A stretch of DNA of 33,905 bases from a virus (taxonomy: Duplodnaviria > Heunggongvirae > Uroviricota > Caudoviricetes), in IMG/VR virus record IMGVR_UViG_2541047807_000007. The stretch is one strand, 5' to 3'. The notes beneath the pieces were generated by a model that worked only from the letters and a program-made list of their open reading frames with translations, was not told the origin of the DNA and did no database searches. Shown here in pieces: positions 1,859-27,042 of the stretch. The position numbers were made by a program, and so were the translations under genes. Every line of letters begins with the position of its first letter. Position 1 is the stretch's first letter.

Positions 1859-2323
1859 ATGAGGCAAGATTTAAATAAAACATCGGTGACTATCATCAGA
1901 GGAAACCTTGAAGATGCATCACCATCTAACAGCCTGACTATTACGTATAGTGAGTTTGCTAATAGTACGAAAGAGTATAAATCAGCCGATGAATTGAGAA
2001 AACAAAATATCATTTTGGATAATGATGAACTTGTTTTTATTAGTTCAGATGGTGATGAAGAAATTCTACGGCTGAATTTGAAATCTTTATTTCATGACTC
2101 TTTTTTGCGCATTAAATATGAATGCGTTGGTATGACCGTTCAAGAGCGCATGGAACTCGCTAAGGCTCTTCGTGAAACGATAATTTCTAAATCAGGCGAT
2201 ATAAATAGTATTAAATGGTCAATAGGGCTTGATGACTGGAAAAGTATTTTTGACATGATGACGCATCCGTATAAACAGCATACGGATGCAAGATGCTATT
2301 TTAAAAATGATTTATATCAATAA
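1859..2323 (+). CDS. Hypothetical protein (154 aa), AT-rich cargo ORF translationally coupled to cox
   Basis: Strong SD GGAGG 4 nt before the ATG, 9 nt after the cox stop; much lower GC than flanking backbone; no motif I recognise. Confidence 0.6.
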   Translation: MRQDLNKTSVTIIRGNLEDASPSNSLTITYSEFANSTKEYKSADELRKQNIILDNDELVFISSDGDEEILRLNLKSLFHDSFLRIKYECVGMTVQERMELAKALRETIISKSGDINSIKWSIGLDDWKSIFDMMTHPYKQHTDARCYFKNDLYQ

Positions 2324-2495
2324 AGCCTTTGAGTTGGACTGGCTTTTTAGGGTGAATGATCTCTCTTAATTGAATAGTTAATTCATCCACTTTTTTAGCG
2401 TCCTCAAAATCTCCCATTGGAGTTGGTAGGGTATTTGCTAATGCAACCGCTTTTTCGAGAGTGGTTATAAGTTCGTCAATATTTTGATTATTCAT
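2301..2495 (-). CDS. Hypothetical small protein (64 aa), convergent with and overlapping the 3' end of the 154-aa ORF
   Basis: Good SD (GAGGT, about 6 nt spacing) before the ATG; protein-like acidic/helical composition; the orientation is antisense to the early operon, so its reality is uncertain. Confidence 0.4.
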   Translation of the reverse strand: MNNQNIDELITTLEKAVALANTLPTPMGDFEDAKKVDELTIQLREIIHPKKPVQLKGFIDINHF

Positions 2496-2595
2496 TTATT
2501 ACCTCGCTTGTGGTTGGTTGTTTTTGGCGATTCGATCTTACCACAAGACCATGTGCCGGACATGGCTAAAAACCGGCTCTGTTTCAGGAGGAGTT

Positions 2596-2766
2596 ATGCA
2601 GGAACCTCGTTGTATTGCTCAGTTATTGCGTAACGAAAGCCCTAGGGCGATTGACTTCACCATCACCCACGGGAAAGGACGCAAGGGAATCATTATCCGC
2701 ACCAAAAAACAGAGTTCGTTAAAGAAGGCTCTGACCTTTCTGAAAAGCCGGAGGGTCTGGAAATGA
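2596..2766 (+). CDS. Small basic early protein (56 aa from internal ATG; track ORF starts 2518)
   Basis: Strong SD AGGAGG 5 nt before the internal ATG; ATGA overlap with the next gene; position of the small ORF preceding B in P2. Confidence 0.55.
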   Translation: MQEPRCIAQLLRNESPRAIDFTITHGKGRKGIIIRTKKQSSLKKALTFLKSRRVWK

Positions 2767-3263
2767 CAGTGATGACGCTTAATCTCGTTGAAAAACAGCC
2801 AGCAGCTATGCGCCGGATAATTGGTAAGCATCTGGCCGTCCCTCGCTGGCAGGATACATGTGATTATTATAATCAGATGATGGAACGCGAACGGCTAACG
2901 GTTTGCTTTCATGCGCAGTTAAAACAGCGTCACGCAACGATGCGTTTTGAAGAAATGAACGACGTCGAACGTGAACGGCTGGTTTGTGCAATTGATGAAT
3001 TGCGCGGGGCATTCTCAAAACGCCGTCAGGTTGGCGCAAGTGAGTATGCATATATTAGTTTTTTAACAGTCAGTCAGCGTCGCACTTTATTTATGCACGC
3101 ACGACTGACAGAAAAAGAATTTAACCAGCCATACTGGCGAATTAATGAAGAGTCATGTTACTGGCGTGATGCTTTATTCCGTGCATTACGTGAATTATTC
3201 AGTCTGTTTGAGTATGCACCGACAATTCTGACGTCGGTAAAACCAGAGCAATATCTGCATTAA
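2763..3263 (+). CDS. B: Replication gene B-like early protein (166 aa)
   Basis: Same length and map position as P2 gpB (after cox, before A); translationally coupled to the upstream ORF. Assignment is by synteny and length only. Confidence 0.5.
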   Translation: MTVMTLNLVEKQPAAMRRIIGKHLAVPRWQDTCDYYNQMMERERLTVCFHAQLKQRHATMRFEEMNDVERERLVCAIDELRGAFSKRRQVGASEYAYISFLTVSQRRTLFMHARLTEKEFNQPYWRINEESCYWRDALFRALRELFSLFEYAPTILTSVKPEQYLH

Positions 3264-4310: not shown

Positions 4311-4582
4311 GTATTCGTATTGAAATTGGCGAACGTTATGTCGTTACCAGTGACAGCTTTCAGTTTATTCTCCACGAGAAAAAGAGAGCGGAAAGCGGTA
4401 AAAACGCCGGTCAGGAATGGCTGGCGGTGGTTGGTTATTACCCGAAATTAAGCCAGCTCGTTTCCGGCCTGATGCATCACGATATTCTGACCGGAAGCGC
4501 AAAGTCTTTTGCTGATTTAAACGCGCAGGTTGAGCAACTCAGCAAGCGTTGCTCAGAGGCTTTTGGCTCATATGGCCGTTAA
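4307..4582 (+). CDS. Small early hypothetical protein (91 aa)
   Basis: ATGA overlap with the upstream gene; 11-nt overlap with the A start. Confidence 0.55.
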   Translation: MSIRIEIGERYVVTSDSFQFILHEKKRAESGKNAGQEWLAVVGYYPKLSQLVSGLMHHDILTGSAKSFADLNAQVEQLSKRCSEAFGSYGR

Positions 4583-6848
4583 AGCCTCCGGGCGTTTTGT
4601 CCCTCCGTCAGCATTTGCCGCAGGCACCGGTAAGGCGTTTACCGGTGCTTATGCATGGAACGCGCCACGCGAGGCTGTCGGGCGCGAAAGACCCCTTACA
4701 CGTGACGAGATGCGTCAGGTGCAAGGTGTTTTATCCACGATTAACCGCCTGCCTTACTTTTTGCGCTCGCTGTTTACTTCACGCTATGACTACATCCGGC
4801 GCAATAAAAGCACGGTGCACGGGTTTTATTTCCTCACATCCACTTTTCAGCGTCGTTTATGGCCGCGCATTGAGCGTGTGAATCAGCGCCATGAAATGAA
4901 CACCGACGCGTCGTTGCTGTTTCTGGCAGAGCGTGACCACTATGCGCGCCTGCCGGGAATGAATGACAAGGAGCTGAAAAAGTTTGCCGCCCGTATCTCA
5001 TCGCAGCTTTTCATGATGTATGAGGAACTCAGCGATGCCTGGGTGGATGCGCATGGCGAAAAAGAATCGCTGTTTACGGATGAGGCGCAGGCTCACCTGT
5101 ATGGTCATGTTGCTGGCGCTGCACGTGCTTTCAATATTTCCCCGCTCTACTGGAAAAAATACTGTAAAGGACAGATGACCACGAGGCAGGCATATTCTGC
5201 CATTGCCCGCCTGTTTAACGATGAGTGGTGGACTCATCAGCTTAAAGGCCAGCGTATGCGCTGGCATGAGGCGTTACTGATTGCTGTAGGGGAGGTCAAT
5301 AAAGACCGTTCTCCTTATGCCAGTAAACACGCCATTCGTGATGTGCGTGCACGCCGCCAGGCAAATCTGGAATTTCTTAAATCGTGTGACCTCGAAAACA
5401 GGGAAACCGGCGAGCGCATCGACCTTATCAGTAAGGTGATGGGCAGTATTTCTAATCCTGAAATTCGTCGGATGGAGTTGATGAACACCATTGCCGGTAT
5501 TGAGCGTTACGCCGCCGCAGAGGGCGATGTGGGGATGTTTATCACGCTGACCGCGCCGTCAAAGTATCACCCGACACGTCAGGTCGGAAAAGGCGAAAGT
5601 AAAACCGTCCAGCTTAATCACGGCTGGAATGATGAGGCATTTAATCCAAAGGATGCGCAGCGATATCTCTGCCGTATCTGGAGCCTGATGCGCACGGCAT
5701 TCAAGGATAATGATTTACAGGCCTACGGTTTGCGTGTCGTTGAGCCACACCACGACGGAACGCCGCACTGGCATATGATGCTTTTTTGTAATCCACGCCA
5801 GCGTAACCAGATTATCGAAATCATGCGTCGCTATGCGCTTAAAGAGGATGGCGACGAAAGAGGAGCCGCGCGAAACCGTTTTCAGGCAAAACACCTTAAC
5901 CGGGGCGGTGCTGCGGGGTATATCGCGAAATACATCTCAAAAAACATCGACGGATATGCACTGGATGGTCAGCTCGATAACGATACCGGCAGGCCGCTGA
6001 AAGACACAGCAGCGGCTGTTACCGCATGGGCGTCAACGTGGCGTATCCCGCAATTTAAAACGGTTGGTCTGCCGACAATGGGGGCTTACCGTGAACTACG
6101 CAAATTGCCTCGTGGCGTCAGCATTGCTGATGAGTTTGACGAACGCGTCGAGGCTGCACGCGCCGCCGCAGACAGTGGTGATTTTGCGTTGTATATCAGC
6201 GCGCAGGGTGGGGCAAATGTCCCGCGCGATTGTCAGACTGTCAGGGTTGCCCGTAGCCCGTCGGATGACGTTAACGAGTATGAGGAAGAAGTCGAGAGAG
6301 TGGTCGGCATTTACGCGCCGCATCTCGGCGCGCGTCATATTCATATCACCAGAACCACGGACTGGCGCATTGTTCCGAAAGTTCCTGTCGTTGAGCCTTT
6401 GACTTTAAAAAGCGGCATCGCCGCGCCTCGGAGTCCTGTCAATAACTGTGGAAAGCTCACCGGTGGTGATACTTCGTTACCGGCTCCCACACCTTCTGAA
6501 CACGCCGCAGCAGTGCTTAATCTGGTTGATGACGGTGTTATCGAATGGAACGACACGGAGGTCGTGAGGGCGCTCAGGGGGGCATTAAAACACGACCTGA
6601 GAACACCAAATCGTCAGCAAAGAAACGGAAGCCCGTTAAAACCACATGAAATTGCACCATCGGCCAGACTGACCCGGTCGGAAAGAATGCAAATTACCCG
6701 TATCCGCGTTGACCTTGCTCAGAACGGTATCAGGCCGCAGCGATGGGAGCTTGAGGCGCTGGCGCGTGGCGCGACCGTAAATTATTACGGGAAATCTTTC
6801 AATTATCAGGTCGCTGATGAGTGGCCTGGATTTTTGTTACCCATTTGA
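4572..6848 (+). CDS. A: Replication initiation endonuclease gpA (rolling-circle HUH/Y initiator; 758 aa from first ATG, track ORF starts at a TTG at 4530)
   Basis: HUH metal-binding motif (PHWHMMLF) and catalytic tyrosine motif (GYIAKYISKN); size and position of P2 gpA. Confidence 0.9.
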   Translation: MAVKASGRFVPPSAFAAGTGKAFTGAYAWNAPREAVGRERPLTRDEMRQVQGVLSTINRLPYFLRSLFTSRYDYIRRNKSTVHGFYFLTSTFQRRLWPRIERVNQRHEMNTDASLLFLAERDHYARLPGMNDKELKKFAARISSQLFMMYEELSDAWVDAHGEKESLFTDEAQAHLYGHVAGAARAFNISPLYWKKYCKGQMTTRQAYSAIARLFNDEWWTHQLKGQRMRWHEALLIAVGEVNKDRSPYASKHAIRDVRARRQANLEFLKSCDLENRETGERIDLISKVMGSISNPEIRRMELMNTIAGIERYAAAEGDVGMFITLTAPSKYHPTRQVGKGESKTVQLNHGWNDEAFNPKDAQRYLCRIWSLMRTAFKDNDLQAYGLRVVEPHHDGTPHWHMMLFCNPRQRNQIIEIMRRYALKEDGDERGAARNRFQAKHLNRGGAAGYIAKYISKNIDGYALDGQLDNDTGRPLKDTAAAVTAWASTWRIPQFKTVGLPTMGAYRELRKLPRGVSIADEFDERVEAARAAADSGDFALYISAQGGANVPRDCQTVRVARSPSDDVNEYEEEVERVVGIYAPHLGARHIHITRTTDWRIVPKVPVVEPLTLKSGIAAPRSPVNNCGKLTGGDTSLPAPTPSEHAAAVLNLVDDGVIEWNDTEVVRALRGALKHDLRTPNRQQRNGSPLKPHEIAPSARLTRSERMQITRIRVDLAQNGIRPQRWELEALARGATVNYYGKSFNYQVADEWPGFLLPI

Positions 6849-7961: not shown

Positions 7962-9263
7962 ATGGAAAATATAAAGATTGATAAGTTTCTCACTATTCAA
8001 AAAGTTGATATTCCTCTTAAGAAAGTGAATATATTTATTGGGCCTCAGGCACAGGGGAAAAGTGTCATTGCAAAGCTAATAAAATATTTTAAAGATTATC
8101 CTATGGATATACTACGAGCTTCAACAGAGGGTAAAACTAAAAGAGATATATTGAAGGAGCAAAAGAATAAGTTTAGTAAAATTTTCCCTCAGCAGTATTG
8201 GGCTGATGATGAGTTTTTTATTGAGTATAGTAATAAGCACTATTGGGTGCGGATTACTAATCGAAAAAATAGCAAAGGGTCATTGAAAATAGACCTTTCT
8301 GAGAATTTAACGAAGACGATTGCTAAACTTCGTTTGATTGTACGAAAGGATTTAGATGAAAATATTGAGAATTCACTTGCAGAAAGCGTTACGAGAAGAC
8401 GTAAACGCGGAATTGAACATGAATTGCGAGTATGTCTTTCTCTAGGATTGTTTTCAGAACCAGAAACAAAGCTTGAAAGTGTTTTTTATATCCCCGCAGG
8501 GCGCTCTTTTTTTGCTAATTTGCAAAAAAATGTGTTTTCATTTTTATCCAGTAGTATAGAAATTGACTACTTTTTGACAGAGTTTGGTTCTCTGTATGAA
8601 CAAACAAAAAAATTATTTAACCAAGATTACATGATTAGGATGCTTAGGGGGGCTGTGCCTCAACATGTTAATAAACTTGTGGAGGAGTTGATTTGCGGAA
8701 AATATATAACAGAAAAGGGTGAGGATTTTATTCGTCATGCTGCTAAGAAGACGAATCTTAACAACTCGAGCTCAGGGCAGCAAGAAGCGTTACCAATGGC
8801 TTTAATGTTATCCTCATGGCCGTATTTACAGTCTGTGACTAGTAAGAGTTTTATTATTGAGGAGCCGGAGGCTCATCTGTTTCCTTCTGCCCAAGCAAAA
8901 GTTGTATCTTTAATAGCCTCAGCGTATAACCAAGCAGAAAGCTATTGTAGCTATACAATAACAACACATAGTCCATATATTCTAAGTGCCTTCAATAATT
9001 TGATTCAAGCAGGTAATGCATTAAAGTGTATTAAGGGCAAGAATAATACCGATATCGAACGCTTATATAAGCTTGTTCCAGAGTCTCAAATTATTGATTT
9101 TGATGATGTGACAGCTTATATGGTTAATGCTGGGAAAGTGACGGAAATACTGGATTCCGAACTAAATATATTAGATGCGAATGAAATAGATAGGATTTCC
9201 TCTATTTTTTCAGAGACTTTTGATGCATTGATTGATATCGAATATTCGGCTACTGTGAATTAG
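7962..9263 (+). CDS. OLD-like / AAA_21-type ABC ATPase (433 aa), no fused nuclease domain; cargo
   Basis: Walker A GPQAQGKS near the N-terminus, Q-loop-like YIPAGR, ABC signature-like SSGQQ, Walker B FIIEEPEAHLFP, H-loop TTHSP; SD AAGGAG; very AT-rich. Confidence 0.8.
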   Translation: MENIKIDKFLTIQKVDIPLKKVNIFIGPQAQGKSVIAKLIKYFKDYPMDILRASTEGKTKRDILKEQKNKFSKIFPQQYWADDEFFIEYSNKHYWVRITNRKNSKGSLKIDLSENLTKTIAKLRLIVRKDLDENIENSLAESVTRRRKRGIEHELRVCLSLGLFSEPETKLESVFYIPAGRSFFANLQKNVFSFLSSSIEIDYFLTEFGSLYEQTKKLFNQDYMIRMLRGAVPQHVNKLVEELICGKYITEKGEDFIRHAAKKTNLNNSSSGQQEALPMALMLSSWPYLQSVTSKSFIIEEPEAHLFPSAQAKVVSLIASAYNQAESYCSYTITTHSPYILSAFNNLIQAGNALKCIKGKNNTDIERLYKLVPESQIIDFDDVTAYMVNAGKVTEILDSELNILDANEIDRISSIFSETFDALIDIEYSATVN

Positions 9264-9271
9264 GTGATTGA

Positions 9272-9709
9272 ATGTGTAAAAATTGCAAAGGAAAAACAAA
9301 AAATAAAATCATTGTGCTATCTGATAAAGGAACATCAACGCAATTGTCAGTCACAAATGATAATGAGTTGGAAGTTGAGCATAAGTTAATAGATGGTTGC
9401 GCTATTGTTGTTGGAGAGCGGTGTGATCATTATTTGAAGATTTATAACAATCAGGATGTTTCACATCTTTTTGTTGAACTTAAAGGAAGTGATGTTGAAA
9501 AAGCTGTTAAACAGATAGTGACAACTTTAAAGTCAGGTGTGATTAATGTAGGTGCTAAAGAAAAAAAACATGGTGCTATTGTTAGCACTAGGAATCCGCT
9601 AAACTCAACAGAAACCAATAGGTTAAAGAAGAAAATTCTTTTGAGTGACGGAGTGAATTTGCATTTCTATAAAATGAAGGCGCAGCAAAAAATAACTTCT
9701 TTTACATGA
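9272..9709 (+). CDS. Hypothetical 145-aa Cys-containing partner of the ATPase (candidate effector)
   Basis: Starts 8 nt after the ATPase stop with SD AGGTGA; N-terminal CxxC (MCKNCKGK), C43/C51-DH, VELKGSD and LLSDG acidic motifs; same AT-rich composition as the ATPase. Confidence 0.65.
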   Translation: MCKNCKGKTKNKIIVLSDKGTSTQLSVTNDNELEVEHKLIDGCAIVVGERCDHYLKIYNNQDVSHLFVELKGSDVEKAVKQIVTTLKSGVINVGAKEKKHGAIVSTRNPLNSTETNRLKKKILLSDGVNLHFYKMKAQQKITSFT

Positions 9710-19049: not shown

Positions 19050-19835
19050 TTATGAATGATTTTTATTTGATGCTTTGTATTCTAAAACCTTCTTATTGGC
19101 GTAAAAGAATTTTGTATATGACAGGAATATAACCAGACCTGAAGTGAAATAGACGAGGGATAGTATTAATAATGCTTTTTTGTGACTGTTATTATCTTTA
19201 ATCTCCTGGCTTAACCATTCGGAGTCCTCCTCGTTTAGCTGTAAGAGCTTATTGCAGGCGATTTCAGGAAGTGTGTCTTTTATAAATACGTTTTGCAGTC
19301 TCTTGCAATCGGCAAGGCTATAAGTTTTATTAAATTCAACTGCTTTATTTTTGAAGGATAAAAGAACTTTGTCACTATAAACATAGTACATCATATTTTT
19401 ATATGGTATGCCTATGGCATCTCTTACTATAGCGGATTGTTTGTTGTGTATATAACATGCGAAGAGAATATAAATAATACTGGCCAGAATTACAATTATT
19501 GTTTTAATTATGTGTGGTGGTTTTGTTATGTCACCCCAGAAGCGAGTAAGGAAAAAATACGATGTTTTTAGTTTTCCATCAATCAGCCCCTGCTGTATCA
19601 TTCTCACATCTTCGATGCCTGATACATTGATTCCGTTAATTATTTTAAATAGTTGAATGTCGCGCCATTTTTTGTCGAGCATTTTTAACTTTCTGTCTGA
19701 ATACTCAAGATTGAAATGATGTGCAATAAACCTCATAAGATTACTTTTACCAAAGGTAACAAATGTTAATGCTATTAATAAAAATAGATACAAAGAGATA
19801 AACCACCACGCATTAGTCACATTATCACTGAACAT
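19050..19835 (-). CDS. Cargo integral membrane protein (261 aa, about 3 TM helices), AT-rich, antisense to the late operon
   Basis: SD GAGGAG before the ATG; hydrophobic segments near residues 10-30, 118-140 and 233-253; codon composition unlike the backbone. Confidence 0.7.
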   Translation of the reverse strand: MFSDNVTNAWWFISLYLFLLIALTFVTFGKSNLMRFIAHHFNLEYSDRKLKMLDKKWRDIQLFKIINGINVSGIEDVRMIQQGLIDGKLKTSYFFLTRFWGDITKPPHIIKTIIVILASIIYILFACYIHNKQSAIVRDAIGIPYKNMMYYVYSDKVLLSFKNKAVEFNKTYSLADCKRLQNVFIKDTLPEIACNKLLQLNEEDSEWLSQEIKDNNSHKKALLILSLVYFTSGLVIFLSYTKFFYANKKVLEYKASNKNHS

Positions 19836-25858: not shown

Positions 25859-26349
25859 TTTACTGATTCCTCGTGATACAGGCTTATACCTGCCCATTAG
25901 TTATATGGCTCCCGTGCTGCTTCGTAAACGTTCAATAATCAAACAATTGACACTGATCATAAAACCAGTTAGAGGATTTGACTCTAGCTTGGATATATGA
26001 TGATGCCACCCCCTTTATATTGTTGTCGGTAACTCACAGACATTGAACTCATGCTGGTGAGTGAAAGGCTACATAAACGCCCAACATTTAAACTGCCCTC
26101 AGCAGTGTTCGCGGAGCAATATACAGGCTTCGTATTCAATCCTTGCCCTACGAGAAACCCTAGCCGTTGCCTCGTTTTCAAGTGTCAGGAAGTTCTTTGT
26201 CAGACCTCATACAGTCTTGGGCTGGGTGAGGTGCATGGGGGAAGTTGAAGCCTTAACTGTTGAGGTAAATCGAACTATAAGTGTGCAATTTTTCAAGCTC
26301 GGCGCTATTTTAGTATTGAAAACAATTAGTACGCCCCCAAGGACAACTC

Positions 26350-27042
26350 ATGATCGAATTTATCGCAGAGCATATAAACACAGTAAGTACACTTATCTCC
26401 GCTTTGGCAGCATTGCTAACAGCAGTTGCTACATTTTTCTTGTGGAGAGTAACAAGGCTATTAGCAGACGAGACAAAAAGGATGGTTGACGCATCAGTTC
26501 AACCTCATGTCGTTGTGACTCTTGAACCAAATTCTTGGGCTGCTTTTTATTTTGATATCAATATTGCTAATACCGGAAATGCCCCAGCCTATGATATTGA
26601 AGTCGGATTTAATCCCCCACTGGTTAATGCAGAACATAGAAAAAATAAAGGTATACCATTTAGCAAGGTTAGCGTATTGAAAAACGGCCATTCCCTCAAC
26701 AGCAGTCTTTGTAAGTATGACCAGATTAAAGATCAAGTTTATTCTGTTAGTATTAGCTGGTCTAAACAGCCGGGCTCAACTGAAAGAGAGCGGAATGAGT
26801 ATTCTTATGATATGGCTTCTTTCGAGGGGGTTAGCTACTTAGGTGCAAGGAGTCCAATGACACAGATAGCTGAGCAGATGAAAAAGATTAGAGAAGACTG
26901 GAGGCCGATTTCCCAGGGAAGCAAAAAAATTAAAACAGACAACTATAATTCAAGTGACAGAGCCGAGGAACAACGAGCACGTGAAGAGTGGTATCAGACC
27001 ACTGCAAAGAAATGGGATAAAGAAAAGCAAAAAGATAACTAA
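26350..27042 (+). CDS. Cargo membrane-anchored protein (230 aa): N-terminal TM helix, central domain, highly charged K/E-rich C-terminal tail
   Basis: SD AAGGA; hydrophobic segment at residues 12-32 followed by RVTRLL (positive-inside); occupies the P2 Z/fun position between G and FI. Confidence 0.7.
   Translation: MIEFIAEHINTVSTLISALAALLTAVATFFLWRVTRLLADETKRMVDASVQPHVVVTLEPNSWAAFYFDINIANTGNAPAYDIEVGFNPPLVNAEHRKNKGIPFSKVSVLKNGHSLNSSLCKYDQIKDQVYSVSISWSKQPGSTERERNEYSYDMASFEGVSYLGARSPMTQIAEQMKKIREDWRPISQGSKKIKTDNYNSSDRAEEQRAREEWYQTTAKKWDKEKQKDN

Follow-up and report, generated by a model that had tools for sequence, protein, structure and literature searches.

Accessory genes (morons) of P2-like phages have been described between A and Q (old/tin), between G and FI (Z/fun) and in the tail/ogr-int region (PMC3573123, PMC9122126, 10.1101/2024.10.15.618418). 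The junction between cox and orf78 was not singled out as a hotspot in these three papers, and just a minor 'integrase-primase' region is mentioned in another (PMC13586616). Here we describe this junction in the window, a stretch of 33,905 nucleotides (IMG/VR record IMGVR_UViG_2541047807_000007) that is a P2-like (Peduovirus) prophage. At positions 1859-2595 it contains two convergent genes, ORF154 on the + strand and ORF64 on the − strand, together with a conserved non-coding block. This segment is best explained, from sequence comparison, as a horizontally acquired two-gene accessory cassette between cox and orf78. We tentatively propose that the small protein antagonises the large early protein until commitment to lysis, and put the chance of this somewhat below even.

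Comparison with described systems

The cassette resembles the morons of P2 (old/tin, Z/fun and orf30) in being AT-rich, in lying between conserved genes and in being absent from most relatives. ORF64, with its predicted promoter and a 3' hairpin, faces against the operon, and neaT in the P2-like prophage of CFT073 has the same orientation (PMC3573123). However, the location matches none of the described P2 hotspots (A-Q, Z/fun and tail/ogr-int), and the A-Q site of the window holds separate cargo. The cassette further differs from morons in its constant two-gene form, in having one gene wired into the early operon and in carrying a block that is common to unrelated cargo.

The corresponding place in coliphage 186, immediately behind the switch genes of its early lytic operon, is taken by fil and dhr. 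Both are non-essential and, according to their annotation, act on the host, as an inhibitor of cell division and of host replication, respectively. However, neither a convergent small gene nor a block is present at the fil/dhr position of 186, and homology of the cassette proteins to fil/dhr was rejected, as BLASTP gave no significant match.

Like a toxin-antitoxin system, the cassette is a two-gene unit with a small partner. The genes of type II systems are co-transcribed, whereas those of the cassette are convergent with overlapping 3' ends, and no homology of either partner to a type II family was found in Pfam, PADLOC, PHROG or PDB. The small partner in type I systems is a hydrophobic membrane peptide, whereas ORF64 is hydrophilic and acidic. 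The cassette also differs from toxin-antitoxin modules in that both of its proteins are acidic and in that one fusion protein is without an ORF64-type partner. PADLOC gave no match to known anti-phage defence for ORF154, ORF64 or most of the other cassette proteins.

Face-to-face units are also found in convergent switches (pR/pL of 186, Pe/Pc of P2) and in antisense control (lambda oop-cII, IS10 RNA-IN/RNA-OUT), where, as predicted here, interference is expected and the RNAs overlap at their 3' ends. The cassette differs from these in that its promoters would be ~1.1 kb apart, both transcripts are protein-coding, and the genes are accessory genes rather than switch genes.

The cassette at the cox-orf78 junction

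The upstream flank is the early operon's first gene, cox (118 aa; 1493-1849, +; Pfam Phage_Cox, 8.6e-29; phrog_1831, 1.2e-60). The downstream flank is a 56-aa homologue of orf78 (2596-2766, +; phrog_273, 5.9e-40), after which the operon continues with gene B (2763-3263, +; the B genes of other loci carry Pfam Phage_RepB). The original prediction had described the gene pair as an insertion relative to the P2 early operon, and this was borne out. The distance from the cox stop to the orf78 ATG is 2-10 nt in P2-type phages, and this empty site was found in 72 of the 79 IMG/VR loci recovered with orf78.

The predicted features of the two genes were likewise found in place. ORF154 (154 aa, ATG start; 1859-2323, +), assigned by ORF calling and by its homologue family, is placed for translation directly after cox. 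Its ribosome-binding site AAGGAGG (1847-1853, +), a perfect Shine-Dalgarno sequence (SD) read directly, has the cox stop codon TAA (1847-1849) inside it and leaves a 5-nt gap to the ATG at 1859. ORF64 (64 aa, ATG start; 2301-2495, −; PGAP WP_001064716.1), assigned in the same way, is convergent with the early operon and has its own SD, GAGGT (2505->2501, − strand), 5 nt from the ATG. The 3' ends of the two ORFs overlap by 23 bp. The G+C content is 0.325-0.38 over 1901-2500 as compared with 0.42-0.50 in the flanking phage genes, in line with the predicted AT-richness. Presence and absence are clean between conserved genes and the base composition is unlike that of the flanks, as expected of a moron.

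The cassette is rare. The 662-bp segment of the type found in the window (type 1, see below) occurs in four of 5426 complete E. coli genomes, and both ORFs are annotated there as hypothetical proteins (NCBI pipeline). E. coli strains such as A3024, DAX4, EA2 and BUCT2930 carry this prophage. The non-coding block was found at 61 places in 60 complete E. coli genomes and gene B at 1903 places in 1669 genomes; about 3% of such E. coli prophages carry the block, and ~97% are without the cassette. A related ...GCGGCNTAAGGNG left junction was also seen in other cassettes and at empty sites. In phages with a cox of 88-90 aa, the left side of the cassette retains a remnant of the 3' end of the 118-aa type of cox. 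This remnant points to spread by recombination. The comparison of loci establishes the cassette as rare, mobile and AT-rich, with a conserved architecture and a conserved, putatively regulatory block.

Conservation of the two genes

A word-indexed protein search with single sequences found only near-identical copies, and an exhaustive phmmer search followed by a profile search was needed to recover the family. About 20 clusters of ORF154 homologues (136-154 aa, 32-43% identity) were obtained from E. coli, Citrobacter, Salmonella, Kluyvera, Yersinia ruckeri and metagenomes. In every locus that could be read, the homologue lies directly 3' of cox and before an orf78-like gene and B, and the adjoining cox genes are of several types (88-90 aa and 118 aa). 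Except in one Kluyvera locus (L105), the homologues are followed by a convergent ORF of 62-64 aa with an ATG or GTG start, which is 51-67% identical to ORF64. A scan of genome contigs gave matches in E. albertii only. Two phmmer matches were discounted as spurious or marginal, namely P0005, which is a low-complexity repeat, and the repeat protein P0007.

It had been doubted in the original prediction whether ORF64 is a gene at all. With the window copy as reference, its dN/dS against the homologues is 0.10-0.29, at a dS near saturation. Together with its conservation beside its partner in diverged relatives, this indicates that ORF64 is protein-coding and under purifying selection, which removes the doubt. 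Sequence change is about twofold faster in the large protein than in the small one, with pN values of 0.39-0.46 and 0.19-0.29, respectively. On this comparative evidence, both genes are real and are inherited as a pair.

ORF154 is acidic (pI 5.2), and ORF64 is hydrophilic and acidic (grand average of hydropathicity −0.28, pI 5.1); all cassette proteins are mildly acidic and soluble. Neither ORF154 nor ORF64 had a match in Pfam, PHROG or PADLOC, and profiles built from their family alignments found nothing below E = 0.1 among PDB sequences. The proteins of the other cassette types that were scanned gave no significant match in Pfam or PADLOC and none to a PHROG of known function. The type-4 proteins had PADLOC matches below threshold, to JAB for the large protein (E 1.4e-3) and to Cyclase for the small protein (E 4.2e-3). 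AlphaFold2 models of ORF154 were poor, and a literature search with the RefSeq protein accessions found nothing.

Recurrent architecture

Public collections were searched with the non-coding sequence between ORF64 and orf78 as the query. At least seven cassettes with one layout were found, in which a + gene connected to the early operon is met by a small convergent − gene, with the conserved non-coding block next. In P2-like phages they follow cox and in 186-like phages cII, and in phage SEN5 the cassette precedes cox. This recurrent architecture and its conserved block were missed in the original prediction, and they are of more interest than the single insertion.

The sizes of the two partners vary among the cassettes. 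Type 1, that of the window and its relatives, has a + gene of 139-154 aa and a − gene of 62-64 aa. Type 2 (62 aa on the + strand, 58 aa on the − strand) is present in the Yersinia phages vB_YpM_115 and vB_YpM_117 and in many avian E. coli such as BEN2908, and its proteins belong to PHROGs of unknown function. Type 3 (198 aa, +; 68 aa, −) occurs in P2-like prophages. Type 4 (199-203 aa, +; ~62 aa, −) follows cII in 186-like phages and, in one P2-like phage, cox; type 5 (134 aa, +; 68 aa, −) lies after cII in a 186-like prophage. In type 7, from metagenomic prophages, a 79-aa + gene is paired with an ORF64 homologue, and a metagenomic prophage (L136) combines a 284-aa + gene with the type-3 small protein. 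The Salmonella phages SEN5 and SEN4 carry genes of 158 aa (+) and 60 aa (−), with the cassette and block between the early promoter and cox. The block of SEN5 stays with the small gene and not with orf78, which indicates that it travels with the small leftward gene.

The two-gene form was found in every cassette type and no single-gene version was seen, barring ambiguous ORFs in two 186-like prophages (L110 and L114). The gene ends abut or overlap tightly, by 23, 4, 0 or 2 bp, and this is conserved. The cassettes were found beside several unrelated C/Cox immunity types and, in 186-like phages, beside Apl/CII, which argues against an immunity-specific role.

Several individual loci were also noted. 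The cassette and block of SEN5 (L123, 1756-2551) lie upstream of cox, directly after the early promoter, and a GC-rich hairpin, GGCCGG-ttcc-CCGGCC, is located between the two convergent genes. One type-3 locus (L006, IMG/VR; ~940-1550 of the extracted segment) has the small − gene and the block intact and no intact 198-aa + ORF, the criterion being that there was no ATG-initiated ORF of at least 45 aa; its large gene may have decayed. The ambiguous loci L110 and L114 are arranged differently, with an 87-aa leftward ORF next to the block and overlapping putative ORFs of 79 aa (+) and 65 aa (−).

Shared domains and partner patterns

The Kluyvera protein P0020 (216 aa) consists of a complete type-1 domain and a C-terminal domain of ~75 aa that is homologous to the C-terminus of the type-3 protein, and P0017 matched type 3 in the same C-terminal domain with E = 7e-10. 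The ~75-aa domain, with the motif ...FGDL..I.G....P......Y.R..Y.N..F.G.V.YG.S..., is found on three unrelated N-terminal parts, those of the 198-aa type-3 protein and the 284-aa L136 protein and the type-1 domain (in Kluyvera P0020 and in P0017). Wherever the locus was recovered (type 3, L136 and Kluyvera L105), the domain adjoins a single small-gene family, that of type 3. In Kluyvera intermedia (L105, 3001-3884) the convergent small gene of the fusion gene belongs to the type-3 family and not to the ORF64 family. The joint swap of a C-terminal domain and a small gene resembles that of toxin C-terminus/immunity modules.

Another domain, of ~70 aa, has the motif GC.R..T...R..I...S..AI.E......V..HL.SG..F......YE. 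It stands alone as the 79-aa type-7 protein (L126-L134 and L138, from metagenomes), forms the C-terminal domain of the type-4 proteins (L113 and L118) and is probably also present at the N-terminus of the 158-aa SEN5 protein (L123). No Pfam family matched it even at E up to 10, and an apparent resemblance to FlbD or LytTR is accordingly not claimed. We also considered a domain shared between the type-1 protein and the 79-aa type-7, type-4 C-terminal and SEN5 proteins, and rejected it at an hhalign probability of 0.8%.

Predicted leftward transcript

The block (2496-2595) is better conserved than the coding flanks. Within it, the sequence TGnTAnnnT is kept in every variant, as TGGTAAGAT in the window (2535-2543, read 2543->2535 on the − strand) and as TGGTAGGAT, TGGTACTAT, TGATATGCT, TGGTAATTT or TGATAGGAT, and its columns are invariant in the alignment. 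We predict that TGGTAAGAT is the extended −10 promoter element of ORF64. The 5' leader of the predicted ORF64 mRNA would then cover 2496-2528 (−), with an inferred start point, and includes the SD. The leader and ribosome site after the −10 are conserved between cassettes with unrelated proteins, and both the −10 and the leader are conserved even where the adjacent synonymous sites are saturated. Read by eye, the block showed no site for sigma-54, LexA, CRP, IHF, the Cox box or an Ogr-type activator (TGT-N12-ACA).

A repeat search and folding identified a hairpin at 2263-2289. Its position is inside the 3' end of ORF154, and on the − strand it follows the ORF64 stop at a distance of 11 nt. It is a perfect inverted repeat of 10 bp, extended to 12 bp as − strand RNA, with folding z scores of −3.2 (− strand) and −3.0 (+ strand). 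All type-1 loci have a hairpin of 8-12 bp at the equivalent place with differing stem sequences, and in the Kluyvera type-3-like locus a terminator-like hairpin is followed by a U-run. The hairpin at 2263-2289 is probably the 3'-end or terminator hairpin of the leftward transcript. Since it is conserved directly after the ORF64 stop, the transcript probably ends within the 3' end of ORF154. From this predicted end it would be another ~400 nt to cox and ~850 nt to the C/Pe region.

ORF154 appears to lack a separate promoter; the conserved TGnTAnnnT and the 3' hairpin exist for ORF64 only. The original prediction had also suggested a moron expressed in the lysogen, a reading that would fit the predicted −10 and the conserved 3' hairpin.

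Proposed function of the gene pair

We propose the following scheme. Without a promoter of its own, ORF154 would depend on the early promoter Pe and be made only when Pe is active, at infection or induction. Leftward transcription of ORF64 would start from the extended −10 in the block and end at the 2263-2289 hairpin, so that ORF64 could be made in the lysogen while Pe is repressed. Once Pe fires, rightward transcription would get to the essential genes B and A only by passing through ORF64 and its promoter, and this read-through would shut ORF64 off through transcriptional interference and pairing of the two RNAs. The two proteins would then be present in opposite phases. The functions assigned to the two proteins are the weakest step of the scheme. 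ORF154 would be an early-lytic effector that acts in host take-over or counter-defence, and ORF64 would be its lysogen-phase antagonist, an immunity-like partner that neutralises leaky ORF154 and is removed at commitment to lysis.

Several observations were counted in favour of this scheme. The genes are real and co-inherited, the insertion is rare and AT-rich, and the same layout recurs with unrelated proteins at three early-operon positions. The −10, the leader and the 3' hairpin are conserved, and the block stays with the small gene in SEN5. The ~75-aa C-terminal domain shows partner specificity, the large protein is changing at roughly twice the rate of its small partner, and the equivalent position in phage 186 holds fil and dhr, which act in host take-over.

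Other observations weigh against it. The promoter, the transcript end and the interference are predictions, and a generic scan for −35/−10 sites and terminators found nothing for ORF64, with no more sites than in shuffled sequence. No cassette protein has a recognisable fold or family in Pfam, PHROG, PADLOC or PDB sequences, and all of the proteins are mildly acidic, unlike the usual combination of a basic toxin and an acidic antitoxin. The complete type-1 domain of Kluyvera L105 occurs without an ORF64-type gene, and hence ORF64 is not an obligatory antidote of this domain. ORF64-family genes also pair with the unrelated 79-aa type-7 protein. Furthermore, physical linkage alone could explain why the small gene co-varies with the neighbouring 3' portion of the large one.

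The main rival explanation is that ORF154 and ORF64 do not interact, function independently and are linked only by a shared mobile cassette. ORF154 could then be an early inhibitor of host defence or a take-over factor, and ORF64 a moron expressed in the lysogen, for example for phage exclusion. We give this a fairly low probability, below that of the antagonism. The pairing of the ORF64 family with both type-1 and type-7 proteins, which share no detectable domain, and the type-1 domain without ORF64 in L105 are consistent with it. The acidic and soluble nature of the proteins is that of many phage inhibitor proteins, and the predicted promoter, the hairpin and the AT-richness of the small gene suit a classical moron. 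Against it, both partners are present in every cassette found (L110 and L114 being ambiguous), their ends abut in a tight and conserved way, and the C-terminal domain and the small gene change together.

The two-stem element

The block also contains a conserved two-stem element (2549-2577), present in a single copy in the window. Stem A pairs CCATG (2549-2553) with CATGG (2561-2565) and stem B pairs GCCGG (2555-2559) with CCGGC (2573-2577), so that the stems are interleaved. In the leftward sense the element lies upstream of the −10, and the spacer between the stems contains AAAA. The stems are paired in 100% and 98.8% of the cells of the alignment, and their covariation score was reached by none of 500 shuffles. 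Almost no disrupted pairs were seen among 20 distinct variants, and compensatory changes were found at four positions (CCACG/CGTGG, GCCGA/TCGGC, GTCGGG/CCCGAC, and a sixth stem-B pair that is A.A or G-C). The loops are 1 nt, 0-1 nt and then 7-9 nt, the last of these containing AAAA. A compact H-type pseudoknot has such loop lengths, which match on the rightward (+) RNA only. The interleaved stems may fold as an H-type pseudoknot on the + RNA or as alternative hairpins, or they may serve as an operator. A further stem (2507-2513 with 2541-2547) was paired in only 70% of the cells and is not claimed.

In all cases the element is found immediately 5' of the next + gene, be it orf78, cox or a 186-type ORF. 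A second alternative, for which we see a limited chance, is that the conserved block works mainly in the rightward early mRNA, where the pseudoknot or hairpin would protect or process the message or control translation for the next gene. An inserted antisense gene would otherwise damage this message, and such a role would be compatible with any of the hypotheses on the proteins. The compensatory changes in interleaved stems with almost no broken pairs, the loop lengths and the constant location all argue for an mRNA element. However, most stem positions are invariant and the covariation comes from single lineages, the wobble pairs are contradictory and do not settle the strand, and the folding energy of the region is unremarkable (z = −1.0 and −0.6). 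Relative to the predicted leftward promoter, the stem bases fall at about −20 to −50 and could also be an operator or an UP-like element. Rfam gave no family at the gathering threshold and no riboswitch family even at E up to 10.

The best Rfam match was to IS10 RNA-OUT at 2504-2551 (+), over the stem opposite the ORF64 leader, with 20.2 bits against a gathering threshold of 41 and E = 0.086. It is probably due to chance.

Other possible roles of the small gene

Compared with the antagonism proposed above, the reverse assignment of roles appears unlikely. ORF64 would here be the effector of the lysogen phase and might, for example, block a step required by superinfecting phages, with ORF154 as the early antidote that lifts this block and frees the prophage for lytic growth. 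The predicted wiring would be the same, the small protein is the more conserved one with few families facing diverse large partners, and the large protein would be first made after Pe fires. However, there is less need for a protein antidote if ORF64 is already silenced by read-through from Pe, as is to be expected, and L105 keeps a type-1 domain without an ORF64-type gene.

We consider it very unlikely that modulation of the lysis-lysogeny switch, by antisense conflict or by action on C or Cox, is a function of the leftward gene or of its transcript, as the original prediction had suggested from an orientation that is indeed convergent with Pe: leftward firing could reduce B and A expression by collision, and phage 186 uses a leftward promoter inside its early operon, pE, to establish lysogeny, but nothing was found that points to such a role, the predicted transcript stops short of cox and of C/Pe at the conserved hairpin straight after the small ORF, the cassettes lie beside unrelated repressor/Cox types and Apl/CII, most related prophages do without the cassette, and the small ORF is coding under purifying selection and not merely an antisense RNA.

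Possible significance

P2-like prophages are present in about one third of complete E. coli genomes, and many new defence systems have already come from the A-Q and Z/fun hotspots. Counter-defence and take-over proteins need early expression, and a variable site in the early operon is therefore a natural place to look for them. The fixed two-gene wiring is unusual, and it suggests a simple way for a prophage to restrain a harmful early protein until it is committed to lysis. The two-stem element with its compensatory changes is a candidate for a new cis-regulatory RNA.

More speculatively, and with fairly low confidence, the cox-orf78 site and its equivalents in 186-like and SEN4-like phages may host an unrecognised class of phase-switch cassettes. 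Each of these would combine an early-lytic effector with a small antagonist expressed in the lysogen, with head-on transcription making their expression mutually exclusive. The shared regulatory block would contain a new structured RNA, a compact pseudoknot with an A-rich loop, and the large proteins, including the ~75-aa and ~70-aa domains, would represent new effector folds that act on the host or on defence systems.

Other features of the window

The left end of the prophage carries the integrase (1-996, −) and the C-type repressor (1090-1389, −). Gene A (4530-6848, +) is located downstream of B.

Accessory cargo was also observed at other sites. In the place where P2 has orf30, between the tail genes, there is a 261-aa ORF (19050-19835, −) that faces against its operon and had no match in Pfam or PADLOC. 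ORFs of 142 aa and 230 aa occupy the Z/fun position (26061-27042, +), with the tail-fibre and sheath genes on either side. Neither Pfam nor PADLOC gave a match for the 230-aa ORF, and a scan of the 142-aa ORF against Pfam gave none. The A-Q hotspot (7962-9709, +) contains a 433-aa AAA_15 ABC-type ATPase (PADLOC PDC-M29A, 1.9e-31; AriA, 7e-26) followed by a 145-aa protein (PDC-M29B, 1.6e-4), and judging from these matches the pair is a candidate two-gene defence system.

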